Origin: Bacteroidales bacterium UBA1754
Lineage (GTDB): Bacteria > Bacteroidota > Bacteroidia > Bacteroidales > Paludibacteraceae
Length of the DNA: 64,000 nt
Direction of reading: 5' to 3'
Assembly (NCBI GenBank): GCA_002315615.1
Contig: DCHK01000069.1
Span: 5,333-69,332, forward strand
Shown: in pieces, positions 9,460 to 47,778 of the stretch
Numbering within the stretch: the stretch's first letter is position 1
Layout of the letters: every line of letters starts with the position of its first letter
Position numbers and translations under genes: made by a program
Notes under the pieces: generated by a model
The model's database searches: none
What the model was told of the DNA's origin: nothing
What the model saw: only the letters and a program-made list of their open reading frames with translations

Positions 9460-9533
<74 letters not shown>

Positions 9534-14496: not shown

Positions 14497-17400
14497 TTGA
14501 AGACCAAAATATATATATTTTCATTTATTGCTTGCGTAATAGGCGTTTTGTCGGTGTATGCGGTTACAAAAGAGGAAACCGATGAGTTGCCTTTCCCAAT
14601 AGCGAAAGATGCAAACGGAACAATAGATGACAAGATAAATTCAGGTTCGGCGGTTGATTTGAAAGACCCCGAAAATATGAAAACCGACGTAGAGTACGAT
14701 GGTGAAAACGACACTTACATTGTGCGTACAAAAGTAGGCGACGAAGAGTTTGGCACTCCGTTTGTTTTTACTTCTGACGAGTACAAAGAGTACAGTTTGA
14801 AACAATCAATGCGCGACTACTGGCGCGACCGCAACGGAATAGAAACTTCGGGTAAGCACAAAGGTTTTTCACTCACTGATATTCAAGTAGATATTGGTAG
14901 AGGCGATGAAATTTTTGGTCCTGGTGGAATACAAGTGAAAACTCAAGGTTCTGCCGAAATTTCTATGGGTTTACGTCGCAATCGCATACAAAATCCTACA
15001 TTGACCGAACGCTCACAAAATCCACCACCATCTTTCGATTTCGATGAAAAAATTCAATTGAATGTAAAAGGTAGCGTGGGCGACAAAATAAAACTCGGAC
15101 TGAACTATAATACCGAAGCATCTTTTGATTTTGATTCGGAAATGATTAAGTTGCAGTATGCTGGCAACGAAGACGAAATCATTCAAAGCATAGAAGCGGG
15201 TAATGTGAGTATGCCACTTAGTACATCGCTCATCAGTGGTTCGTCGGCATTGTTTGGCTTGCGTACAAAATTAAAGTTCGGCAGAATGACTGTAGATGCT
15301 GTAGTGTCGCAGCAACAATCAGAATCGCAGAACGTGAGCGTGAAAAATGGTGCACAGACAACCGACTTTGAAATTCCTATTGACGAATACGATGAAAATC
15401 GTCATTTCTTCCTTTCTAAATATTTTTACGACAATTATAATAAGTCGCTAAAAACTTTGCCTTACATCAATTCTTCGGTAAAAATAAACCGTATAGAAGT
15501 TTGGGTTACCAACAAAAGAGGTACAACGACCGATGTGCGTAATATCGTAACTTTTGCCGATTTGGGCGAACCCGAAGTTTTCAATCATCACTGGTTGCCG
15601 AAGTCAGGTGCACGTTATCCGTCAAACAATACAAACAACCTTTACTCTACGGTAACGGATACAGTAAATTTTACCGATGGCGAATATACTATTCGTGATA
15701 TTGACGGTGTGTCGGTGCTATTGGAGAACAAACTTAGTGCTTACGGAATTGAAGGTGGCGAAGACTATGACAAGATAGAAAATGCTCGAATGTTGAGTAG
15801 TTCGGAATATACGCTCAATGCACAATTGGGTTATATTTCGTTGAAAGCCGCTTTGAATGCCGATGAAGTGTTGGCAGTGGCATACGAGTTTGTGGCAAAC
15901 GGTGTGGTGTATCAAGTGGGTGAATTTGCTTCGGATATTAAAACGCCAAAAACGCTTGTGTTGAAGATGTTGAAAGGTACAAACCTTCATCCTGATGCAC
16001 CGACTTGGAAGTTGATGATGAAAAACGTCTATTCACTTGGTGCAATGCAAGTGCAACAAGACAAATTTGAACTTAACGTAATGTTCCAAAGCGACTCTAC
16101 GGGATTGTATTTGAATTATTTGCCAAACTCTCCAATACAAGACAAGACATTGCTCTCGGCTATGGGATTGGATAAATTGGATTCGCGCAACGAGGCACAC
16201 CCCGATGGAGTGTACGACTTTGTGAGCGGAATAACGATAATTCCAGAAACTGGTCGCATTATTTTCCCAACAATTGAACCGTTTGGTTCCGATTTGAAAA
16301 GCCTTTTGGGAAGTTCAAAAGAATACGAGAAATACATTTATCAAGAGTTGTACGATTCTACGTTGGTTGTGGCTCAAGAGTATTCCGAGAAAAATAAATT
16401 CAAACTGAAAGGTAAATACAAAGCATCGTCGGGTTCGGAAATTCGCTTGAATGCAATGAACATTCCACGTGGGTCGGTGAAGGTAACTGCTGGTGGTAGA
16501 ACATTGACAGAAAACTCCGATTATACCGTCGATTACACAATGGGTACTGTAAATATCATCAATACGGAACTCCTTGATGCTGGCGAAACAATCAATGTGT
16601 CGCTCGAAAATCAGTCGTTTTTCAACACGCAAAGAAAATCACTTTTTGGTTTGCATCTCGACTATAAATTCTCCGACAATTTCAATTTGGGCGGTACCAT
16701 TATGCACTTGTCAGAAAAACCATTGACAAAAAAAGTGGAGATGGGAAGCGAACCGATTTCAAACACTATTTGGGGATTTAACGGAGCGTACAAAACAGAT
16801 TTACCTTGGTTGACAAACGCTTTCAATAAAATCCCATTTTTCGATTTGAAAGCACCTTCGTCATTCAGCATAAACGGAGAGTTTGCACAACTTATTCCTG
16901 GCGAGGCAAAAGTGATTTCGGGTAATGCCTATATTGATGATTTTGAATCTACCAAAAGTGGAATAGATATTCGTTACGCATACAATTGGAAATTGGCAAG
17001 TATTCCTGGCGACGAGAAACTTTTCCCCGAGTCGAAATTGTCAAACGATTTGTCAATAGGATACAATCGTGCGTTGCTTTCGTGGTACACTATCGACCCA
17101 CTCTTTACGCGTAACAATACCAATACGCCGAAACATATTCGTAGCGATTCGGAGCAATTGTCCAACCATTATGTTCGTGAGGTGGAAGAACAAGAAATTT
17201 ATCCTAATCGCGAGACAGCATACGGTCAATCGTCGTACAGAACAATTCTCAACTTGGCATATTATCCAAACGAGCGTGGTCCGTACAACTTCGACGAAAA
17301 TATCGATACTGATGGTAACCTTACGAATCCAAAAAGTCGTTGGGCAGGTATTATGCGAAAATTGGAAACTACCGATTTTGAAAAAGCAAATATCGAGTAC

Positions 17401-20400
17401 ATCGAATTTTGGTTGATGGACCCATTCATCTACAACAAGACTGCGCAAGGTGGAGAACTTTATTTTAATCTTGGCGATATTTCCGAAGATATTTTGAAAG
17501 ATGGTAAGAAATTTGCCGAAAATGCTTTGCCAGCCGACGATAAAAGTACAGTACGCATAGATACTACCGCTTGGGGTATTGTGCCGCGCGTTCAGTCGTT
17601 GGTGTCGTCGTTTGCTACAAATGCACTCGAACGTCAAGATGTCGGTTTGAATGGTTTGAATACCGATGCAGAAAAAACTTTTTATGGAGATTTCCTCAAG
17701 AATATTCGCGAGAAGTTGAGCAGTGATGCTATTATGAAAATGCAAGAAGACCCATTTTCTGTATTGAACGACCCTGCAACCGATAATTACCATTATTTCC
17801 TTGGTGGCGACTACGATAATGCCGAGACAAGCGTATTCGACCGTTACAAACGCTACAATGGTTTTGAAGGAAACTCGCAAACATCGGGTGTGCAAAAGGC
17901 TGCCACATCAGTGCCCGACGTCGAAGATATCAATGCAGACAATACGTTGAATGAATACGAACGCTTTTATCAATACAAAATAGACTTGCGTCCAAATTCG
18001 ATGGTTGTTGGCGAAAATTACATCAACGATAAAATTGTTTCGCAAGTTTCGTTGGCTAACGGAACTACCGATTATGTAACTTGGTATCAGTTCAAAATTC
18101 CAATAAGCGACTACACCGAAAAGGTTGGAAATATTCGCAACTTTAAGTCAATCAGATTCGTGAGAATGTATTTGAGAGATTTTTCAGAAGAAACTCACTT
18201 GCGTTTTGGTTCGTTGGAATTGGTGCGTGGCGAGTGGAGAACGTACACGAAAGACTTGCGTTACAACCAAACAGAAACGCCAATTTCCGATGGTAAGATT
18301 GATGTAGAATCAGTCAGTGTAGAAGAAAATTCAAGCAAAGAACCTGTAAATTATATTTTGCCTCCAGGTGTCGACCGTGTGATTGACCCAAGTCAGACAC
18401 AACTTCGTCAGGAAAACGAAGGTGCAATGTCTATAAAAATCACAGACTTAGCACCAAAAGATGCACGTGCGGTGTATAAAACATCAGGTTTGGATATGCG
18501 TCAGTACAAAAAACTGAAAATGTTTGTTCACGCTGAGGCATTGATAGATGATGAAACAAATCTAAAGGACAACGATTTGACAGTGTTTATTCGTTTGGGT
18601 AGCGACCACACAAACAACTTCTACGAATATGAAGTGCCACTTACGCTTACACCGAAAGGTTATTACAGCGAAGATGTGTCGGGCGACCAACGTCGAGTTT
18701 GGCCAGAATCGAACGATATTGATTTTTCTTTGTCGAGATTGACGGAGGCAAAACAAAAACGTAATGCTTCGGGTCAGAAATTGACGGAATTATATTCCGT
18801 TTACGACAAAACCGAAGGCAAGCAACAAAATAAAATCACAGTGCTTGGTAACCCATCGCTCAGCGAAGTGAAGGTGATTATGATTGGTATTCGTAACCAA
18901 TCTACATCAATTAAGAGTGGAGAAATTTGGGTGAACGAATTGCGTATGAGCGAGTTTGAAGACCAAGGTGGTGTGGCTGCATTGGCAAATGCTACTTTGA
19001 ATGTGTCGGATTTGGCAATGCTCAATTTCAGTGGTAGAATGGAAACCGCAGGATACGGAAGCATAGAACAAAATGTGCAACAGCGAAATTTGGACGATGA
19101 GTACCAAATGAGTGTGGCAACTTCTGTAGAATTTGGAAAATTCTTCCCCGAAAAAGCAAAAGTCCACATTCCGTTGTATTATTCGTACTCTCGCGATGTG
19201 ATTAAACCAGATTACGACCCAAAAAACCAAGATTTGAAGTTGAACGATGTGTTGGCAGATGCCACAAAGAGCGAACGAGATTCTATAAAGAAAGTGTCTC
19301 GCGATATGCAAGTGTCTCGTGGTGTAAGTCTGTCAAATGTGAAAGTTGATATTCAAAGCAAAAATCCACAACTTTACGACCCGACAAACTTCTCGGTTGG
19401 ATATAGTTTTAACGAAACTACAAATTACGACCCCGAAACGGAGTACGAAGTAACGAAAAACCACAAAGGTTATATCAGTTATAACTTTAACACAACGCCA
19501 AAACCATATCAACCTTTCAGTAGTATGAAAGATAAAAGCGGTTATTTGAAGTTGATTAAAGATTTTAATATCAACTATATGCCTTCGTACATATCGTATA
19601 TAAATAATATTAACCGTTATTACTACGAGCGTCAATTGCGCGATTTGACGGGAACGGGAAAACTGAATCCTTCTTTTTCGCAAGACTTTACTTGGGATAG
19701 AAATTTTGATTTGAAATATGATTTTTCACGTTCGTTGAAGTTTACATTCTCTACTGCAACAAATTCTCGTATTGACGAGCCTTACACTGTGGTTAATAAA
19801 GATTTGTATCCCGATGAATATCAACATTGGAAAGACTCTGTAATGTACAATTTCCGTCACGGAGGACGTCCGTTGCAGTACGAACAAATGTTTACCATTA
19901 CTTACAATATTCCAATCAACAAAATTCCTGCACTCGATTGGGTAACAGCCAATGCACAGTACAAATCGACATATCAGTGGGATAGAGGAGTAACTGCAAA
20001 AGATGAAGATGGAAACGCATATTCGTTAGGAAATACCGCTACAAATATTATGAATTGGCAAGGCGATGGAAGATTGAATTTCGAAACACTTTACAAGCAT
20101 TCAAAATATTTGAAAAACGTAAATACTAAATTTACGAAAACGCGTACAAGACCAAGTGCAAACAAAAATCAACAGAAATACACGCAAACGGTATCGCTTA
20201 AATCGGGCGAGTCGATGGATATTACGCACAAGTTGAAAACGAACAATGTAAAACTTACGGCAACCGATGACAAAGGTCGAACATACACGCTAAACTATAA
20301 AGCAATAGACGAAAACACAATACGCATTAAACCGAAGCGTAATATTGATAATTTGAGCATAACGGTAGAAAAAAGTCAAGACGAGCAACAAAAATCTGCA

Positions 20401-21774
20401 ACTGATTATGTAACTCGCATATTGATGCTTGTGCGCAACGTATCGGCAACGTACAAAGAGTCGAGAGATTTGATTTTGCCACAATATCAGCCTACGACAG
20501 GATTCCTTGGTCAAACAAAATCCGATGGAGTGAAAGCGCCAGGTTATAATTATGTGTTCGGCTTTTTCCGTACCGAACCGTATATTGAAAAGGCATACAA
20601 ACACGGTTGGTTGGGTGCAGATTCTATTGGCGATCCTGTTAGTGTAAACAATACGACCGATTTTCAGGCAAGAATAAATTTGGAACCATTGCCAGGATTC
20701 AAAATAGAAATTTCGGGTTACAGAACAAGTTCAAGTTCGCGCTCCATTTTGTTCGACGGCAAAGGTGGAACAATTGAGACTTTCAACGGAACTTTGTCGA
20801 TGACGCAAGCCGCAATTGGAACTTCTTTTTGGAAAATTGGCGAATCTGGAAATTTCGATTCCGAAGCATTCGATAAGTTCTTGGCGTACAGAGATGTAGT
20901 TGCAAACCGATTGGAACAAGAATACACCGATGCTGGATATAATATTGGCAAATATAATCGGTCATCGTCCGAAGTATTGATACCTGCAATGATGGCTGCT
21001 TATACAAATAAATCGGCATCAAATGTAGGACTGAGCATATTGCCGTCAATAGCGAAGATTATGCCAAACTGGAAAGTCTCTTGTGATGCGTTGTCGAAAA
21101 TATCGGCTGTGAAGAAATATTTCAAAACCATCACATTGTCTCACGGTTATCGTTGCGTTTACAATGTTGGTTCTTATTCTTCGTTCTTGGATTGGGAACA
21201 AGGACCAACTTCAGATTTAGGTTTCCGCAAGAGTGTGTTGTCTGGCGAGTCTGCTCAAAAAATTCCATCGTCAATTTACGATGTGAATAGCGTTACGATT
21301 ACAGAGTCTTTCAACCCACTTTTCGGTGTAAATTTGACTACACTTTCAAATGTTTCGTTCAAGTTGGAGTACAAGCGCACACGTACTTTGAACTTAAACA
21401 TTGCAAGTTTGCAATTGGTTGAAGGACACAATAAAGAGTGGGTTATCGGTGCAGGATACAAGTTCGACAACCTAAATTCGATAATAAAATTAAAACAACA
21501 GCAGACAAAAGTTAAAAATAGTTTGACGTTGCGTGCCGATTTTTCTATTAGAGATGTTAATTCTATTCTTCGTAAAATTGAGGAAGATTACGCAGAACCA
21601 GAGTCGGGCGGAAAAGTGCTTAAATTTGCCTTTACTGCCGATTATGTATTGAGCGAATTCGTCGATTTGTGTTTCTATATGGACAAGAGTTCAAACAAAC
21701 CATTTGTTTCATCTTCGTATCCTACAAAAAGTTGGGACGGCGGTTTCACCATTCGTTTAATGTTGACAAGATAA
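14497..21774 (+). CDS. sprA: Type IX secretion system translocon SprA (Sov)
   Basis: 2425 aa with an N-terminal signal peptide. The giant size, beta-rich and aromatic-rich composition, and conserved ruvA-sprA synteny match SprA. The only start that keeps the signal peptide is TTG at 14497, because an in-frame stop lies at 14488. Confidence 0.92.
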   Translation: MKTKIYIFSFIACVIGVLSVYAVTKEETDELPFPIAKDANGTIDDKINSGSAVDLKDPENMKTDVEYDGENDTYIVRTKVGDEEFGTPFVFTSDEYKEYSLKQSMRDYWRDRNGIETSGKHKGFSLTDIQVDIGRGDEIFGPGGIQVKTQGSAEISMGLRRNRIQNPTLTERSQNPPPSFDFDEKIQLNVKGSVGDKIKLGLNYNTEASFDFDSEMIKLQYAGNEDEIIQSIEAGNVSMPLSTSLISGSSALFGLRTKLKFGRMTVDAVVSQQQSESQNVSVKNGAQTTDFEIPIDEYDENRHFFLSKYFYDNYNKSLKTLPYINSSVKINRIEVWVTNKRGTTTDVRNIVTFADLGEPEVFNHHWLPKSGARYPSNNTNNLYSTVTDTVNFTDGEYTIRDIDGVSVLLENKLSAYGIEGGEDYDKIENARMLSSSEYTLNAQLGYISLKAALNADEVLAVAYEFVANGVVYQVGEFASDIKTPKTLVLKMLKGTNLHPDAPTWKLMMKNVYSLGAMQVQQDKFELNVMFQSDSTGLYLNYLPNSPIQDKTLLSAMGLDKLDSRNEAHPDGVYDFVSGITIIPETGRIIFPTIEPFGSDLKSLLGSSKEYEKYIYQELYDSTLVVAQEYSEKNKFKLKGKYKASSGSEIRLNAMNIPRGSVKVTAGGRTLTENSDYTVDYTMGTVNIINTELLDAGETINVSLENQSFFNTQRKSLFGLHLDYKFSDNFNLGGTIMHLSEKPLTKKVEMGSEPISNTIWGFNGAYKTDLPWLTNAFNKIPFFDLKAPSSFSINGEFAQLIPGEAKVISGNAYIDDFESTKSGIDIRYAYNWKLASIPGDEKLFPESKLSNDLSIGYNRALLSWYTIDPLFTRNNTNTPKHIRSDSEQLSNHYVREVEEQEIYPNRETAYGQSSYRTILNLAYYPNERGPYNFDENIDTDGNLTNPKSRWAGIMRKLETTDFEKANIEYIEFWLMDPFIYNKTAQGGELYFNLGDISEDILKDGKKFAENALPADDKSTVRIDTTAWGIVPRVQSLVSSFATNALERQDVGLNGLNTDAEKTFYGDFLKNIREKLSSDAIMKMQEDPFSVLNDPATDNYHYFLGGDYDNAETSVFDRYKRYNGFEGNSQTSGVQKAATSVPDVEDINADNTLNEYERFYQYKIDLRPNSMVVGENYINDKIVSQVSLANGTTDYVTWYQFKIPISDYTEKVGNIRNFKSIRFVRMYLRDFSEETHLRFGSLELVRGEWRTYTKDLRYNQTETPISDGKIDVESVSVEENSSKEPVNYILPPGVDRVIDPSQTQLRQENEGAMSIKITDLAPKDARAVYKTSGLDMRQYKKLKMFVHAEALIDDETNLKDNDLTVFIRLGSDHTNNFYEYEVPLTLTPKGYYSEDVSGDQRRVWPESNDIDFSLSRLTEAKQKRNASGQKLTELYSVYDKTEGKQQNKITVLGNPSLSEVKVIMIGIRNQSTSIKSGEIWVNELRMSEFEDQGGVAALANATLNVSDLAMLNFSGRMETAGYGSIEQNVQQRNLDDEYQMSVATSVEFGKFFPEKAKVHIPLYYSYSRDVIKPDYDPKNQDLKLNDVLADATKSERDSIKKVSRDMQVSRGVSLSNVKVDIQSKNPQLYDPTNFSVGYSFNETTNYDPETEYEVTKNHKGYISYNFNTTPKPYQPFSSMKDKSGYLKLIKDFNINYMPSYISYINNINRYYYERQLRDLTGTGKLNPSFSQDFTWDRNFDLKYDFSRSLKFTFSTATNSRIDEPYTVVNKDLYPDEYQHWKDSVMYNFRHGGRPLQYEQMFTITYNIPINKIPALDWVTANAQYKSTYQWDRGVTAKDEDGNAYSLGNTATNIMNWQGDGRLNFETLYKHSKYLKNVNTKFTKTRTRPSANKNQQKYTQTVSLKSGESMDITHKLKTNNVKLTATDDKGRTYTLNYKAIDENTIRIKPKRNIDNLSITVEKSQDEQQKSATDYVTRILMLVRNVSATYKESRDLILPQYQPTTGFLGQTKSDGVKAPGYNYVFGFFRTEPYIEKAYKHGWLGADSIGDPVSVNNTTDFQARINLEPLPGFKIEISGYRTSSSSRSILFDGKGGTIETFNGTLSMTQAAIGTSFWKIGESGNFDSEAFDKFLAYRDVVANRLEQEYTDAGYNIGKYNRSSSEVLIPAMMAAYTNKSASNVGLSILPSIAKIMPNWKVSCDALSKISAVKKYFKTITLSHGYRCVYNVGSYSSFLDWEQGPTSDLGFRKSVLSGESAQKIPSSIYDVNSVTITESFNPLFGVNLTTLSNVSFKLEYKRTRTLNLNIASLQLVEGHNKEWVIGAGYKFDNLNSIIKLKQQQTKVKNSLTLRADFSIRDVNSILRKIEEDYAEPESGGKVLKFAFTADYVLSEFVDLCFYMDKSSNKPFVSSSYPTKSWDGGFTIRLMLTR

Positions 21775-43062: not shown

Positions 43063-44226
43063 CTAATCAAAGTCAAACAATGAAGGTTCATTAGTTGGCA
43101 TAAATTTCTTGAATGAAATAGGCAAACAGGTGTTCTCTAAACTTTTTTGTGAAAATAAAAATCTGCCATCACAAATAAATCCCAGTTCATACCAATTTAC
43201 TTGATTTAGTTCTTTGCATACTTCTTCGATGTCTATTTTTTGATTTTTTGGGAAAATGGCTAAAATAGAACCATCATAATTTTTACATTCGTGTGTAAAA
43301 AACGGAGTTTTATTTCTTGTCTTGGCATTTACATATATTCTTTTTTCGTTTGAGATATAATGATTTCTTCCCCATTGCCACCAATTGCTTTCATCAAACT
43401 TTTTGATACCTCTGTTTAGTAATTCTTCTTTATGACCAAACAAGAATTCGTTTGTTGTGTTGTAAATCATACGTTTTGTATTTCCTGTCTTGGCAGTAAA
43501 TGAGCAAACAAAATCAGTATTACCAAATTCTTCATTTGTGAAGATATTATCAGCACCACTGACAGCTCCTACTTTTACAAAAAATAAATTTTTGAAACGT
43601 AAAGGGTATGAGTTGTCGGTAAACATAAGTTGCCCATTGCTGCAGATAAATTCTTTTGTTATATTTGTTTTTCTACTAAAATTGTTTTTCTCAAAACGGA
43701 AAATAACACAATTGGGGTTGAAACCTTTGAAAATTCGCTGGTCACCTAAGTCTATTAAATCTGTAATTGTACCGTTCTCGTATATAAATTGATTTAATTT
43801 TATGCTTGATGTTGCTTTGAAAAAATCTCTCGGAGTGATAAATATCAGTTCTCCATGTTCGGTTAAATGATAGATACACTTTTCGATAAAAAACAAGTAA
43901 AGATTGCTTCGCTCATCAAATAATCTTGATCTTAGTTTCTTTTTCGTGCTTACTTCAATATCTTGATAACGTACGTACGGAGGATTCCCGATTATTGTAT
44001 CAAATTTTTCTGAAATTGGATAATCAAAGAAATCCATATTTAAGGCATTGTTTGGACAATGAATTTTGTCATATTCTATGCCTACGCAATTTGGGATTTC
44101 ATTGAAAAATGCGCCGTCGCCACAAGAAGGCTCTAAAATGCGACCATCGTTTTTTCTCAAAGTGAGCATTTCTGCAACAATACTTTGTGGGGTAAATACT
44201 TGCCCTAAATTTTCAACATTATACAT
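43063..44226 (-). CDS. Type II N6-adenine DNA methyltransferase (gamma class, TaqI/Eco57I-like)
   Basis: 387 aa. Motif order GQVFTP (X), ILEPSCGDGAF (I, SAM binding), IIGNPPYVRY (IV, catalytic), then a C-terminal target-recognition region. No N-terminal HTH. Confidence 0.88.
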   Translation of the reverse strand: MYNVENLGQVFTPQSIVAEMLTLRKNDGRILEPSCGDGAFFNEIPNCVGIEYDKIHCPNNALNMDFFDYPISEKFDTIIGNPPYVRYQDIEVSTKKKLRSRLFDERSNLYLFFIEKCIYHLTEHGELIFITPRDFFKATSSIKLNQFIYENGTITDLIDLGDQRIFKGFNPNCVIFRFEKNNFSRKTNITKEFICSNGQLMFTDNSYPLRFKNLFFVKVGAVSGADNIFTNEEFGNTDFVCSFTAKTGNTKRMIYNTTNEFLFGHKEELLNRGIKKFDESNWWQWGRNHYISNEKRIYVNAKTRNKTPFFTHECKNYDGSILAIFPKNQKIDIEEVCKELNQVNWYELGFICDGRFLFSQKSLENTCLPISFKKFMPTNEPSLFDFD

Positions 44227-44875
44227 ATTCAGGGAAGTATTTTTTGAAATTGAAATAAATGTCAGAACGAAGTTTAATAGACTCGCCCAAAGTTCCTAAA
44301 ATTAACTTCGCTGCATCAAAAAAATCTCTATGATAAACTTCTCTATTACAATTCCATTTACATTGAAAAGGAAGATTGTTGCCATTTGGAGTTAGTGTTT
44401 TTATTCCTTTTAGGGTAGTGCAGAAAACATCAGAAAAATCTTGTTTATTTACAATTAAGAAAAAATAATCTTTGTCTTTTTTGTGCCCAAAGTTTTCTGC
44501 CAATTTTTGAAAATAAGGCAACCATGAAATTTCATTACCGAACGAAGGTTTTATGCCTGTTAATGCATAAAATATACCTAACTTGCAATTAAGATTATCT
44601 GCATGAGTGGTGTCGGTAACTTTTATGTTTATTGGAATAAATTCCTTTGTTTTGGTATTCTCAATTACCAAGTCGTACCATTCTCTTGCATTTGGTCGAC
44701 TAAGGGAATATCCATTTTCAAAATTGTAACTACTTTCTAAAAAATTGAGAATTTCATCTTCATTTATAGCGGAGTTTATTCTTCCGTCTTGTGTTGTTTT
44801 AGAAAGCGAAAGTTCTTTGCTATTAGAAAGAAACTCGCAAATGTTGGATAAAATTTTGGGGACTGCGTTTTCCAT
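44219..44875 (-). CDS. Putative Type II restriction endonuclease partner of the methyltransferase
   Basis: 218 aa. It overlaps the methyltransferase start by 8 nt. A possible PD-(D/E)XK-like core is REWYDLVI...PINIKVTD. There is no recognisable family, so the assignment rests mainly on operon context. Confidence 0.55.
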   Translation of the reverse strand: MENAVPKILSNICEFLSNSKELSLSKTTQDGRINSAINEDEILNFLESSYNFENGYSLSRPNAREWYDLVIENTKTKEFIPINIKVTDTTHADNLNCKLGIFYALTGIKPSFGNEISWLPYFQKLAENFGHKKDKDYFFLIVNKQDFSDVFCTTLKGIKTLTPNGNNLPFQCKWNCNREVYHRDFFDAAKLILGTLGESIKLRSDIYFNFKKYFPEYV

Positions 44876-44878
44876 TTT

Positions 44879-44908
44879 GATTGATAGCTTTGCGCATTAC
44901 TATCAATC
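44879..44908 (-). promoter_or_regulatory. Perfect 9-bp inverted repeat (GATTGATAG-N12-CTATCAATC) ending 3 nt upstream of the endonuclease start codon
   Basis: 44879-44887 is the exact reverse complement of 44900-44908. It could be an operator or a hairpin that occludes translation initiation. Confidence 0.4.
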
Positions 44909-44915
44909 CGACGAG

Positions 44916-45124
44916 AACGCAAAAAAGAAAGGTGTGAAGTTTCTTATTGCGTTACCAAGGCAACCCTGCAAGGAAACCTTCGCCCTCAAATAAGACACTC
45001 ACACCAATCGGTGTAAGCATCACTATTAAATTAAGGGCGAAAGAAGTACCTATACAAGATATTCTTTCATTTATTATTTCTGTGTTTTATTTCCGTAAAA
45101 GTTTGCAGGGTTTTCGGTAAACGC
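44916..45124 (-). ncRNA. Candidate structured RNA or long structured 5' leader of the R-M operon (strand assignment tentative)
   Basis: Nested perfect helices found by hand: 44962-44971/45103-45112 (10 bp), extended by 44949-44956/45116-45124 (8 bp, one bulge); 44979-44986/45034-45041 (8 bp); an apical hairpin 45001-45005/45010-45014; and a separate hairpin 44916-44922/44947-44953 with inner 44925-44930/44940-44945. No credible ORF. Confidence 0.35.
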
Positions 45125-45140
45125 GAAATAATAGCTAATG

Positions 45141-45148
45141 CAAATTTA
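45141..45148 (-). promoter_or_regulatory. -7 promoter element (TAAATTTG) that would start a transcript about 260 nt upstream of the endonuclease gene
   Basis: TAnnTTTG match on the minus strand, just downstream of the DUF3791-like gene stop at 45165. Confidence 0.35.
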
Positions 45149-45164
45149 TAATATGTATATTAGT

Positions 45165-45404
45165 TCAAATTTTCTGTTTCTTGTTGTTTTCTTCTAAAAA
45201 TTCTTCATATAGTGCGACATTTCCCAAATGCCAGAATTTAGTTTCTTCATTTTCTAATTTATAGTACGTTTCGGAACAATAAAAATCGTGTAAGGCTTGC
45301 ATCGAAGAAATGTGTTTTTCTTCGGCAATCAATTGTGCCACAGCAGAGATTTTGCCAGGTAAAAGTAGAAACAAATTTCCATTTGTAATAGTTGGGATAG
45401 TCAT
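45165..45404 (-). CDS. Small DUF3791-like protein (79 aa)
   Basis: ATGA overlap with the upstream DUF3990 gene. The helical pattern SMQALHDFYCSETYYKLENEETKFWHLGNVALYEEFLEE resembles the second type of DUF3791 proteins found next to DUF3990. Confidence 0.6.
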   Translation of the reverse strand: MTIPTITNGNLFLLLPGKISAVAQLIAEEKHISSMQALHDFYCSETYYKLENEETKFWHLGNVALYEEFLEENNKKQKI

Positions 45405-45877
45405 GATTTTATCAATTTTGCTTCTATAAAAGTTAAACTTTGCAAAGCCTTTTGCGTATGAAATAAAATTTGATCTACCAAATCGTATGTTTTTAGTTGC
45501 AAAATGAGTGTCGGTTTGTCAATGAAACCTTGCTCGTACAACGAAAAGCATGCATAAACACGGTCATTAGCAACGGGTCCCAAAACGACATCATATTCGT
45601 GAGAAAATCCTTTTTGCGTTCTGTTTTTCATCACGAAATCAATCCATTGTTCGTTTGGTTTTTCAAAAATATTTTTTTTCAAAATAAAGTTTTCGTCCCA
45701 ATTGTATATGTTCACGTATCCAATATTTGATGTTTGAGTAAGCTTTCTGCGCACCCAACTTTCGGCTTGCTCAAAACTTGTGGTTGTATAAAAACCTGCA
45801 CCAAAATCAAGTGTGCGATTAGGTGGTAGTATTTGTGGTTTTTCTACAATGTTGGTACTTCCGTGATATATTATCAT
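45401..45877 (-). CDS. DUF3990 family protein with an ADP-ribosyltransferase-like H-Y-E motif pattern
   Basis: 158 aa. MIIYHGS, LDFGAGFYTTTSFEQA and FSHEYDVVLGPVAND. The HGS and GFYTT motifs are the family signature as I recall it. Confidence 0.7.
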   Translation of the reverse strand: MIIYHGSTNIVEKPQILPPNRTLDFGAGFYTTTSFEQAESWVRRKLTQTSNIGYVNIYNWDENFILKKNIFEKPNEQWIDFVMKNRTQKGFSHEYDVVLGPVANDRVYACFSLYEQGFIDKPTLILQLKTYDLVDQILFHTQKALQSLTFIEAKLIKS

Positions 45878-46086
45878 TGTTGGTTGTTGATTAAATTATC
45901 TATTTCTTCCATCAACCATTGCGCGCTTTGAGTGTGCAATATCTCGTAATTTTTGCTAAGGTAAGAGATAATATCGTATTTTTCAAAAAGTTCGAGCGTG
46001 TTTTTCCCATCAAGGTGTTTGTGCACTTTGTATTGTTCTATACAAAACGAAACAAAAAATAATATTTCACTTTCATTGTTCTTCAT
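45874..46086 (-). CDS. DUF3791 family protein (70 aa)
   Basis: ILFFVSFCIEQYKVHKHLDGKNTLELFEKYDIISYLSKNYEILHTQS matches the DUF3791 pattern. ATGA overlap with the DUF3990 gene. It starts 9 nt after the amylase gene stop. Confidence 0.7.
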   Translation of the reverse strand: MKNNESEILFFVSFCIEQYKVHKHLDGKNTLELFEKYDIISYLSKNYEILHTQSAQWLMEEIDNLINNQQ

Positions 46087-46095
46087 TGTTGTTTT

Positions 46096-47778
46096 TTAGA
46101 ACTTGTATTTCAAAATTTTCCCACTTTGTGCAGGCAAACTAACCTGAATGTGGCGCGTGAAATTTTCTTCTTTGCTGTTTTTGTCGAGCAAATTAACGGT
46201 TTTTCCCTTTTGCGCAGTTTCTATGTGTAAGAAATCAAGCACTTCGTCGGTAATATCTACAATGATTTCTGCTTCTTTATTGTTAAAATTGGCAACAACC
46301 ATAATTACTTCTTTGCCAGCGCAACGCAAAAATGCGTATTGATGTGCACTGTCGAAAAATGGATTTTCGTAGTTTAGCCACATCAAATCGTAAAAAACGC
46401 CTTCGCGTAATGCCTTTTCGCTATTAAGCAGTGGTATCAGTGTAGTGTAGAACTTGCGAATTTCTTTTTCGCTTTCGGTGAGTAGTTTTTCGTTGAAGTT
46501 GCCATTGTTTATCCATCGTGTAACGCAATCTACATTCCAATAGTCGAAAATGGTGGTGCGTCCGTCCAAACCACTGAAACCTTCTTTATTCATTCCCGCT
46601 TCTCCGAGTTCTTGCCCGAAGTAGAGTAGAAACGGATTTTTATTCATTGTGGCTGATACGATATTTGCTGCAAAACCCGCTTTTGCATTTTGTGCGAAAA
46701 AGTCTGAGGCAATACGTTGCTCGTCGTGGTTTTCAAGGAAATTGAGCATTCGTTCTTGTATGCCTTCATTGCTTTTCCAACAATTACTGATGTTGCTTGT
46801 CGGCGTTTCGCCTCGTGTAGCAGCACGCAGTGTATCGTAAAGTCCTACTTTGTCATATAAGTAGTCAAAATTGCCGTAATCCAAGAAGTTGCGATAAATG
46901 TTTGGATTGTAATTTTCTGCAATAAAAATAATTTTTGGGAATGCTTTTTTTACTTCGGCAATTGCCCAATGCCAAAATTCCACAGGAACCATTTCTGCCA
47001 TATCGCAACGAAATCCATCTACGCCTTTGGCTGCCCAAAAGAGCAAAATGTTGCACATTTTTTGCCAAGTGTCAGGAATTGGGTCGAAACAACGTTCGCC
47101 AGTGAAATAATTTATGCCATAATTTAGTTTTACGGTTTCGTACCAATCGTTGATGCTTGGGTGTGCGTGAAAACAATCGTTGCCTGTTGCTTTTGCTGGC
47201 ATTTCGAGATAATCGCCTTGTTGCTCATCGTGCAAACTGAACTGTGGAGCAAATGCTTCATTTTGAATGTAATAAAAATTATTGTGTGGAGCAAAACCTA
47301 AGTTTTGATTGTCAGTTTCGCCAAGGTCGTTGGTGCGTTTGTAGCGACTATCAGAATAATATTCGCGCGCCACGTGGTTTGGTACAAAATCTATGATAAC
47401 TTTCAAATCTGCGGCGTGCGAACGCTCAAGCAAATCTTCGAATTCGCTCATTCTTTTCTTTACGTTTTCTGCCAAGTCGGGCGAAACATCATAGTAGTCT
47501 TTCACTGCGTATGGCGAGCCTGCTTTCCCTTTTACTACTGCAGGGTGGTTGCGCTTGATGCCGTACGCTGTATAGTCGGTTTGTGTGGCGTGTTCTAATA
47601 TACCAGTGTACCAAATGTGGGTGAATCCCATCTTTTTTATCTCGGTGAGTGCTTTTTCGGTGAAAGCGTTAAATTTTCCGCAACCATTTTCTTCTATTGT
47701 GCCGTTTTCTATATTGGCATTTTTCTTGTTTCCAAAAAGTCGTGTAAACACTTGGTATATAACTACTTTTTCGCTCAT
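46096..47778 (-). CDS. GH13 alpha-amylase family protein (cytoplasmic)
   Basis: 560 aa with no signal peptide. VIYQVFTRLFGN, DFVPNH, GFRCDMAEMV and ENHDEQR are GH13 regions I-IV. Confidence 0.88.
   Translation of the reverse strand: MSEKVVIYQVFTRLFGNKKNANIENGTIEENGCGKFNAFTEKALTEIKKMGFTHIWYTGILEHATQTDYTAYGIKRNHPAVVKGKAGSPYAVKDYYDVSPDLAENVKKRMSEFEDLLERSHAADLKVIIDFVPNHVAREYYSDSRYKRTNDLGETDNQNLGFAPHNNFYYIQNEAFAPQFSLHDEQQGDYLEMPAKATGNDCFHAHPSINDWYETVKLNYGINYFTGERCFDPIPDTWQKMCNILLFWAAKGVDGFRCDMAEMVPVEFWHWAIAEVKKAFPKIIFIAENYNPNIYRNFLDYGNFDYLYDKVGLYDTLRAATRGETPTSNISNCWKSNEGIQERMLNFLENHDEQRIASDFFAQNAKAGFAANIVSATMNKNPFLLYFGQELGEAGMNKEGFSGLDGRTTIFDYWNVDCVTRWINNGNFNEKLLTESEKEIRKFYTTLIPLLNSEKALREGVFYDLMWLNYENPFFDSAHQYAFLRCAGKEVIMVVANFNNKEAEIIVDITDEVLDFLHIETAQKGKTVNLLDKNSKEENFTRHIQVSLPAQSGKILKYKF

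Follow-up and report, generated by a model that had tools for sequence, protein, structure and literature searches.

Type II restriction-modification (R-M) systems have to hold the restriction endonuclease (REase, R) in check relative to methylation by the methyltransferase (MTase, M), and reviews of their regulation describe promoter methylation, MTases that act as repressors through a helix-turn-helix (HTH), antisense RNAs (EcoRI, Eco29kI) and controller (C) proteins (PMC12707154, PMC3874152). Hairpins restricting access to the start site of the REase have also been noted (PMC12707154). Riboswitch, attenuator or leader control does not appear in these reviews, including one of 2025 (PMC12707154, PMC3874152), and our literature searches for R-M leaders or riboswitches and for the RNA motif RAGATH-27 found nothing relevant. 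Here we describe a leader RNA encoded in the spacer directly upstream of a type II R-M operon of Bacteroidales bacterium UBA1754 (contig DCHK01000069.1); the 64,000-nt stretch of that contig which was analysed is referred to as the window, and all positions are those of the window. The operon faces the same problem as the described systems, and its gene order, R then M, is that of EcoRI and Eco29kI. It differs in how that problem might be solved. A Pfam scan of the window proteins agreed with an initial annotation, made from the sequence alone, in finding no C protein and no HTH on the MTase. No HTH open reading frame (ORF) was found in or beside the operon, and the small HTH gene that, together with C-boxes upstream of R, defines C-protein-controlled R-M systems is missing. 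The control proposed here instead resides in cis, in a structured leader with a terminator.

The described RNAs with which this leader invites comparison are terminator/antiterminator leaders (transcriptional riboswitches and the T-box, trp/TRAP, pyr/PyrR and bgl leaders). As in these, a shared strand can pair either upstream, as an antiterminator, or downstream, in a stem with a U tract directly behind it; conservation extends to both folds, and the expression platforms differ by lineage on one core. The R-M leader differs from them in belonging to no described Rfam class, in an ON state that would also need two long-range helices (P2 and P3) spanning 130-190 nt, in a terminator stem that nests a further hairpin (b:b') with the 3' strand of P3 as its loop, and in controlling an R-M pair and not metabolic genes. 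As modelled here, the element appears to work like a terminator/antiterminator leader outside the described families and in a new biological context, and we consider it probable that it is a bistable leader of this kind that gates the R-M operon.

The spacer RNA is structured on the strand that carries the operon. Using RNAfold, the minus strand reached -88.7 kcal/mol compared to -55.8 +/- 4.4 kcal/mol for 200 dinucleotide shuffles (z = -7.56), none of which was as stable, while the plus strand reached -66.4 kcal/mol (z = -2.5). Folding of the REase strand gave z = -4.7 to -9.0 in all 15 leaders tested. The helices proposed earlier by hand folding are present: a perfect 10-bp helix (44962-44971 with 45103-45112; P3), its extension with one bulge (44949-44956 with 45116-45124; P2), a helix at the base of a long hairpin (44979-44986 with 45034-45041; P6), the apical hairpin ACACC-AATC-GGTGT (45001-45014) that forms the apex of P6, and a separate hairpin at 44916-44953, whose arm at 44947-44953 overlaps the 3' strand of P2. 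The suggestion that the region is a structured RNA or a long 5' leader of the R-M operon was supported by covariation on the REase strand and by a position that always abuts the REase start codon. The parts of the leader are listed in Table 1.

To place the leader in a wider set, loci with REase relatives were drawn from genomes, metagenomes, viral contigs and exact-protein look-ups and searched by nhmmer with the window spacer and then with profiles, as well as with a covariance model. Homologous leaders were found in 22 further distinct Bacteroidales loci, including Segatella copri, Alistipes, Rikenellaceae and Paludibacteraceae. The nhmmer and covariance-model matches lie exclusively directly upstream of the REase gene, co-oriented with it and reaching its ATG, and every locus with a leader has the same type II REase gene in an R-then-M operon. 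The covariance model found nothing else significant in 485 kb. The flanking genes vary by locus (MFS transporter, CHAP, RuvB-like, FAD oxidoreductase and others), and the leader therefore moves together with the R-M module. Distant REase relatives (about 56% identity or less, including those of Helicobacter) lack the leader and stand directly after housekeeping genes. Based on these data, the element is very probably a conserved, structured, cis-located RNA family.

The leaders fall into two variants, which have two sequences and one architecture. Type 1, which includes the window, comprises the window leader, L085, L256, L009, L004, L243, L013, L008, L253, L250, L244, L003, L005, L247 and L083, plus the fragment L086; type 2, from Alistipes, Rikenellaceae and Tidjanibacter, comprises L006, L007, L084, L010, L011, L087, L089 and L258. 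The covariance model was built from type 1 leaders only, and it recovered full-length type 2 leaders with E = 3e-5 to 2e-3. A variable insert with hairpins is missing from type 2; in type 1, hairpins occupy the same place in all leaders, with differing sequences.

Covariation among the homologous intergenic regions is present in both of two folds, here termed X and Y. Fold X consists of P2, P3 and P6. From a MAFFT alignment of 15 type 1 leaders, RNAalifold predicted P2, P3, the P6 apex and a hairpin, H, next to the start codon, and 19 of the 37 pairs stay paired through two-sided changes; one pair of P3, for example, reads CG in six leaders, GC in four, UA in two and AU in two. The sequences of P3 are nearly unrelated (AACCCUGCAA, AGCGUCAGAAA, AGGUCCGGAAA, GUCUACCAAACU and, in type 2, ACCUAGGAA), and each perfectly complements its own partner. 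Both variants were then combined in a hand-made alignment, A3, in which the real helix arms are set in fixed registers with artificial 8-nt spacers and N stands for a gap. In A3, 97.8% of the fold X cells are paired, compared to 70.5% in shuffles and 29-47% in slid controls, the percentage paired being inflated by the choice of registers for best pairing. Two-sided changes occur in 25 of 34 pairs, and the covariation score of 0.710 (0.254 in shuffles) was not reached in any of 500 shuffles. The independent covariance-model alignment gave a comparable picture for fold X (92.3% paired, two-sided changes in 26 of 37 pairs, score 0.527 vs 0.249). For the individual helices in A3, compensatory changes affect 10 of the 13 pairs of P2, on which the MAFFT and covariance-model alignments agree, and 10 of 12 pairs of P3 have changed on both sides; the local pairing of P6 is 93% paired, with two-sided changes in five of nine pairs.

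A register-free test compared the duplex energies of cognate and non-cognate arms in 11 de-duplicated type 1 leaders. The cognate strand was the best partner for P3 in 11 of 11 leaders, and the number of permutations, of 5000, that matched the cognate pairing was 0 for P2, 0 for P3, 0 for T (the terminator-like stem of fold Y), 2 for b:b', 12 for H and 24 for local P6, counts that are not probabilities, since the permutations ignore phylogeny. Across the helix cells, 144 G.U pairs were found and only 8 A.C, indicating that the structured strand is the REase strand.

Fold Y uses the 3' strand of P6, which we refer to as the G strand. This strand forms a duplex of 13-22 bp (-15 to -26 kcal/mol) with the tail in 23 of 23 leaders, the tail starting right after P2. 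Directly after the tail comes a U-rich tract, and in 20 of 22 leaders the 9 nt that follow the 3' strand of T contain 5-8 U. Because the 5' strand of P6 and the tail both complement the G strand, they are look-alikes that compete for it, and the three strands covary: L013 has GUUCAUAC, GUGUGAAC and GUUCAC, and type 2 has GCUCACG, GGCGUGAG and UUUCACGCC. The b:b' helix flanks the 3' strand of P3 and also covaries (CAGG:CCUG, CGGG:CCCG, GGAGG:CCUCC, CGAGG:CCUCG, AAGGC:GCCUU and GAGGU:ACCUU, with UGGU:ACCA in type 2). In A3, T and b:b' together are 87% paired, compared to 73.8% in shuffles and 34-58% in slid controls; two-sided changes occur in 10 of 15 pairs, and none of 500 shuffles scored as high as the observed 0.526 (0.277 in shuffles). 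When the 3' halves of six leaders, from the G strand to the U tract, were folded in isolation, all six formed one and the same kind of long hairpin (-21 to -31 kcal/mol, z = -2.2 to -4.8) and left the U tract behind it free; an internal loop separates its T stem from its b:b' stem, whose loop is the 3' strand of P3.

The fold Y hairpin cannot coexist with P2, P3 and P6. The initial annotation had already pointed to mutually exclusive pairings, and two exclusive folds are indeed conserved. It had placed the competition between the hairpin at 44916-44953 and the P2 extension; the main contest is over the 3' strand of P6 (45005-44989), which pairs with either the 5' strand of P6 or 44948-44931, just before the U tract. 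The leader thus has exclusive helices that share a strand and that evolution has kept, both folds exceeding shuffled and slid controls, as in attenuators and riboswitch expression platforms. On the transcribed strand, fold Y also looks like an intrinsic terminator, with a stable stem-loop and a U-rich tract directly behind it, and its stem has an unusually large interior. A simple terminator scan flagged the P6 apex hairpin only; its loop limit of 3-8 nt excludes stem T, which it consequently missed.

Outside this core lie an outer helix and a hairpin at the start codon. The 5' box complements the 3' box beyond the U tract, forming the outermost helix, P1. The type 2 boxes, GCAUCGACGUUAGCC and GGUUGGCAUAGAUGC, differ from those of type 1 and match each other; the box duplexes have energies of -12.7 and -16.0 kcal/mol within a variant and -8.8 and -7.1 kcal/mol across variants. 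In type 1, the 3' box can alternatively pair with CUAUCAAUC to form hairpin H, which ends 0-4 nt before the AUG. In the window H is a perfect 9 bp; G.U closing pairs occur in 6 of 15 leaders, and three of its pairs have changed on both sides. Type 2 has a second, strong and local terminator hairpin, AAAGGCGUGAAAU with AUUUCACGCCUUUUU, the 5' arm of which is the 3' strand of P2. Different expression platforms on one core are a pattern of riboswitch and attenuator families. Two further observations concern the boxes. The conserved AAUGCU of the 5' strand of P6, which contains an AUG at 45018-45020 (within AAUGCUUAC), complements the conserved AGCAUU at the extreme 5' end of the element; it also opens short ORFs that are not conserved, and the 5' box may have in it yet another partner. 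In addition, TCGA, the recognition site of TaqI, lies inside the 5' box AGCATCGA in eight of eight type 2 leaders (e.g., L010 2772-2790), while AGCT is frequent instead in the boxes of type 1. The operon encodes an MTase of the TaqI class, and the presence of the TaqI site may be a coincidence.

Based on these folds, we propose the following model. A cis-acting leader RNA of about 250 nt would be transcribed from the minus strand together with the R-M operon, R first and then M. In fold X, the antiterminated or ON state, the long-range helices P2 and P3 would join the 5' half to the 3' half while P6 holds the G strand, and every potential 5' arm of a terminator would be occupied, allowing read-through in both variants. 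After read-through, P1 would block hairpin H, which otherwise adjoins the REase AUG, such that in type 1 the translation of the REase would be gated too. In fold Y, the terminated or OFF state, the G strand would pair with the tail to form stem T and b:b' would close over the 3' strand of P3, giving a long hairpin and U tract arranged as in an intrinsic terminator and located 45-62 nt ahead of the AUG. An effector, or the kinetics of co-transcriptional folding, would set the ratio of X to Y and thereby gate transcription of the whole operon. The effector might be a protein, perhaps the MTase or the REase itself, or else a small molecule.

Several points weigh against this model. Termination at T, the ON state of fold X, an action of P1 and H on translation and the existence of an effector are all inferred parts of the model. 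For transcripts cut after the U tract, the nearest-neighbour model makes fold X 10-28 kcal/mol more stable than fold Y in 11 type 1 leaders. Folded in isolation, the 5' halves have no unusual stability. Within them, GAAAUAAUA or GAAUAGC could offer the 5' box another partner; several leaders show this complementarity, which in most is not significant compared to shuffles. It is for these reasons, the energetic advantage of X, a 5' half without a stable fold and an alternative partner that is not significant, that the model invokes an effector or folding kinetics. Intrinsic terminators do not usually enclose as large an interior as the T stem does (about 40 nt), and the inflated A3 percentages bear on both folds. 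In the window, the usual place of the promoter upstream of the leader coincides with the 3' end of the 79-aa gene. Conservation of hairpin H does not extend to type 2. P1 in type 1 is 87% paired and shows no covariation, yet its boxes match within and not across the variants; judging from this contrast between the sequences of type 1 and type 2, P1 is plausible and moderately supported. Finally, the two variants have different junction sequences, and this speaks against a small-molecule pocket common to both.

In its most far-reaching form, the terminator/antiterminator model would make the leader a new riboswitch class or effector-sensing antiterminator RNA that renders expression of a mobile type II R-M system conditional on a cellular signal, e.g., methyl-donor supply. 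We regard this as a tentative possibility. If true, it would be the first reported control of an R-M system by a structured sensor RNA. The conserved leader, with covariation behind two exclusive folds of which one resembles a terminator, would add an RNA-structure solution to the known answers to the classic problem of self-killing by the REase, namely controller proteins, self-repressing MTases, promoter methylation and antisense RNAs. Should an effector exist, restriction activity would be linked to the physiology of the cell, affecting phage defence and gene flow in the gut microbiome, and Bacteroidetes might then gain a new regulatory part. With the leader, a new and well-defined RNA family is described from gut Bacteroidales that are abundant, Segatella copri and Alistipes among them.

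A more specific form of the same model is a strict metabolite-sensing riboswitch, in which the P2-P3-P6 core is an aptamer for, e.g., S-adenosylmethionine (SAM) or a related signal, and in which binding favours fold X and turns the operon ON. The core is large, conserved and multi-helical, with a conserved purine-rich internal loop, and the two variants place two expression platforms on this same core, both following the same logic in which the folded core is ON. However, the most conserved nucleotides are those of the switching strands and not of the junctions, which differ between the variants; type 2 lacks a multi-way junction and amounts in essence to a single long, rod-like hairpin; the single gene context gives no metabolic clue to a ligand; and no Rfam riboswitch model matches. 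We therefore consider this form of the model rather unlikely.

The comparison with Rfam 15, comprising 4227 models that include the T-box, the SAM riboswitches and RAGATH-27, bears on this and on other readings. No match was found in the spacer when the whole window was searched at gathering thresholds, and a permissive search (E <= 10) over 44700-45350 gave a best score of 20 bits against a threshold of 76, which is at chance level. The leaders of four homologous loci likewise gave nothing. The impression of the initial annotation that the structure resembles no known RNA family thus stood. No T-box model matched even at E <= 10, and the leader is not a member of that class, which is marked by a stem I specifier loop and by a conserved T-box sequence in the antiterminator bulge, and for which the phylum of the host and the gene class would be atypical.

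An alternative is that the leader senses nothing and acts constitutively, as a folding timer or partial attenuator that keeps the REase low or late relative to the MTase, in analogy to the metastable folds that hok-type toxin mRNAs adopt, or as an element for stabilisation or processing by RNase. The long 5'-3' pairing of P1 and the hairpin H at the AUG recall the fold-back control of hok mRNA. Indeed, toxin mRNAs of the hok/sok type have in common with the R-M leader a potentially lethal product, long-range 5'-3' pairing and alternative folds that decide access to the start region; the R-M leader differs in having no known antisense partner and in placing a terminator-like hairpin upstream of the gene, and shares no sequence or structural homology with them. 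The strong thermodynamic preference for fold X would make a fixed kinetic partition plausible, and R-M systems require the REase to be low or delayed (PMC12707154, PMC3874152). Against this, two extensive folds have been kept by compensatory change, which is more than a static stabiliser requires. Moreover, R and M are co-transcribed and overlap, and when promoter boxes were sought on the sense strand within R, no conserved internal promoter for the MTase was found, so that a leader upstream of R cannot alone alter the R:M ratio at the level of transcription. Overall, an effector-free leader appears unlikely.

A stand-alone, trans-acting small RNA (sRNA) of about 200 nt, ending at T or at the P7 terminator and merely located upstream of the R-M genes, would be bounded to about 200-300 nt by the upstream promoter box and the downstream terminator-like hairpin and U tract. 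This is very unlikely, as the 45-62 nt that separate the REase AUG from the U tract show no promoter box of their own, the 3' box with which the 5' box pairs is located past the terminator, the two boxes changing together between the variants, and the element was never found apart from the REase gene in about 2 Mb of fetched loci.

Leader-peptide attenuation through an upstream ORF (uORF), or a self-cleaving ribozyme, is highly improbable. Many leaders have ORFs of 17-40 codons that start at a conserved AUG within AAUGCUCAC, but the peptides share MLT alone, which is dictated by the conserved RNA sequence, their frames and stops vary, and the AUG lies inside a stable helix; the leader peptide was rejected on the ground that the peptides are not conserved. 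No conserved ORF was found in the spacer, in keeping with the earlier view that it holds no credible one. As for a ribozyme, cmscan detected a weak similarity to RAGATH-27 (RF03100), a motif named for its association with ribozyme-linked genes, in which the 12-nt GUUUACCGAAAA fits the consensus of the sub-threshold alignment. The leader is nevertheless not a member of this family: it scored 20.2 bits against a gathering threshold of 76.1 (E = 3.5), the model hairpin is unmatched and the homologous leaders gave no hit, and no Rfam ribozyme family matches.

Least credible of all is an element acting at the level of DNA, whether an invertible promoter with 23-nt inverted repeats, a miniature transposable element (MITE) or a protein-bound operator palindrome (GATTGATAG-N12-CTATCAATC): imperfect inverted repeats do flank a 131-bp segment, a perfect 9-bp palindrome lies beside the ATG and the antisense strand also folds well in several homologues, but the orientation is the same in 23 of 23 loci, the repeat arms covary with the excess of G.U over A.C that is a signature of RNA, the closing pair of H is G.U in 6 of 15 leaders, the Pfam scan found no recombinase or HTH gene adjacent, and the window contains a single copy, with no further one in the other fetched loci and no plasmid or phage matches. 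The inverton and MITE readings of the 23-nt repeats were rejected on the basis of the constant orientation, the G.U covariation of the arms and the single copy; an inverton would be expected in both orientations with an invertase gene nearby, and a MITE in multiple copies with target-site duplications.

A promoter for the leader can be proposed in most loci. Of 22 loci, 15 have a TAnnTTTG box (the Bacteroidetes -7 promoter box) at a distance of 40-100 nt upstream of the 5' box; the window has a single such box, which adjoins the element. The initial annotation had singled out this box, at 45141-45148 on the minus strand, and it is present as TAAATTTG, although it is not conserved in the homologues. 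Downstream of the promoter box, the ACAUAUU motif of the window (Table 1) has equivalents in L003-L011, L084-L089, L247 and L258; no pairing partner or role was found for it. A small stable hairpin lies 10-40 nt downstream of the TAnnTTTG box, just past the predicted transcription start and before the leader, in L085 (GGACAUCAUUGAGUAUGUCC), L009, L013, L008 and L004, and this hairpin might stabilise the 5' end.

Table 1. Parts of the leader RNA and neighbouring genes in the window, in the order of transcription; the RNA is the minus strand, and positions within it descend from 5' to 3'.
Feature	Position	Strand	Remark
Alpha-amylase gene	46096-47778	minus	upstream in the sense of transcription
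DUF3791 gene, 70 aa	45874-46086	minus	upstream of spacer
DUF3990 gene, 158 aa	45401-45877	minus	upstream of spacer
79-aa ORF	45165-45404	minus	immediately upstream of spacer
Spacer	44876-45164	minus (RNA)	flanked by minus-strand genes
ACAUAUU motif	45150-45156	minus	some 10-15 nt before 5' box; shared by most leaders of both variants in an alignment anchored at 5' box
TAAATTTG	45141-45148	minus	match to Bacteroidetes -7 promoter box TAnnTTTG; abuts 5' box
5' box UGCAUUAGCUAUUAUUU	45126-45142	minus	5' strand of outermost helix P1 in minimum-free-energy fold; pairs with 3' box
P2 5' strand CGCGUUUACC	45116-45125	minus	compensatory changes
Purine-rich junction		minus	between P2 5' strand and P3 5' strand
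P3 5' strand AACCCUGCAA	45103-45112	minus	covariation, duplex test
Variable insert with hairpins	45039-45102	minus	missing from type 2 leaders
Insert: short helix GGAAAU	45094-45089	minus	
Insert: GAAAUAAUA	45080-45072	minus	
Insert: hairpin P5	45068-45039	minus	
Long hairpin P6	44982-45038	minus	proposed antiterminator; apex GCUUACACC (45018-45010) pairs with GGUGUGAGU (45005-44997)
G strand GGUGUGAGUGUCUUAUU	44989-45005	minus	shared 3' strand of P6, begins GGUGUGAGU; pairs with P6 5' strand or tail
b (AAGGU)	44976-44980	minus	pairs with b'
P3 3' strand UUGCAGGGUU	44962-44971	minus	loop of b:b' hairpin in alternative fold
b' (GCCUU)	44957-44961	minus	pairs with b
P2 3' strand GGUAACGC	44949-44956	minus	pairs with P2 5' strand
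Tail AAUAAGAAACUUCACACC	44931-44948	minus	3' strand of terminator-like stem T; duplex with G strand
U tract UUUCUUUUUU	44921-44930	minus	directly after T stem
3' box GAUUGAUAGUAAUGC	44894-44908	minus	P1 3' strand and 5' arm of hairpin H
Hairpin H 3' arm CUAUCAAUC	44879-44887	minus	ends 3 nt before REase AUG (44875-44873)
REase (R) gene, 218 aa	44219-44875	minus	next gene downstream of leader
MTase (M) gene, 387 aa	43063-44226	minus	N6-adenine DNA methyltransferase, TaqI/Eco57I class; Pfam Eco57I and N6_Mtase

The two genes downstream of the leader are those of a type II system. The REase has 1268 homologues, of which those from Helicobacter are named restriction endonuclease in the sources; it had no match in Pfam, NCBIfam or PDB, and its recognition site could accordingly not be inferred. 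The MTase matches M.TaqI and BseCI in PDB. The M gene starts before R ends: its ATG precedes the stop codon of R by 5 nt, giving an 8-nt overlap (44219-44226) that is invariant in all leader-bearing loci, and this invariance suggests that translation of M is coupled to that of R.

Among REase relatives that lack the leader, L014, L023, L031 and L036 have the R-M module downstream of a tyrosyl-tRNA synthetase (TyrRS), an aminotransferase, a flagellar hook protein (FlgE) and a multicopper oxidase, with very short spacers. In leader-less relatives no controller protein was found in the place of the leader, and the small upstream ORFs had no Pfam match. In L259-L261 (Paludibacteraceae; REase 52% identical), an ORF of 119-139 aa at 1066-1485 takes the place of the leader directly upstream of the REase, with no match in Pfam or NCBIfam. 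The REase relatives in viral contigs are distant (<=40% identity) and none has a leader; a scan of these contigs for the hairpin H pattern gave chance matches only, and a BLAST search of plasmids and phages with the spacer found nothing.

Upstream of the leader in the window, the DUF3791 gene, the DUF3990 gene and the 79-aa ORF (45165-46086, minus strand) are packed by 4-nt start/stop overlaps, and the 79-aa ORF had no match in Pfam or NCBIfam. This cassette ends 28 nt before the leader, where other loci place the R-M promoter, and the same arrangement recurs in L001 and L002. Elsewhere in the window, a tRNA gene at 9460-9533 on the minus strand was the sole Rfam match at gathering thresholds, and a very long ORF of 2425 aa occupies 14497-21774 on the plus strand.

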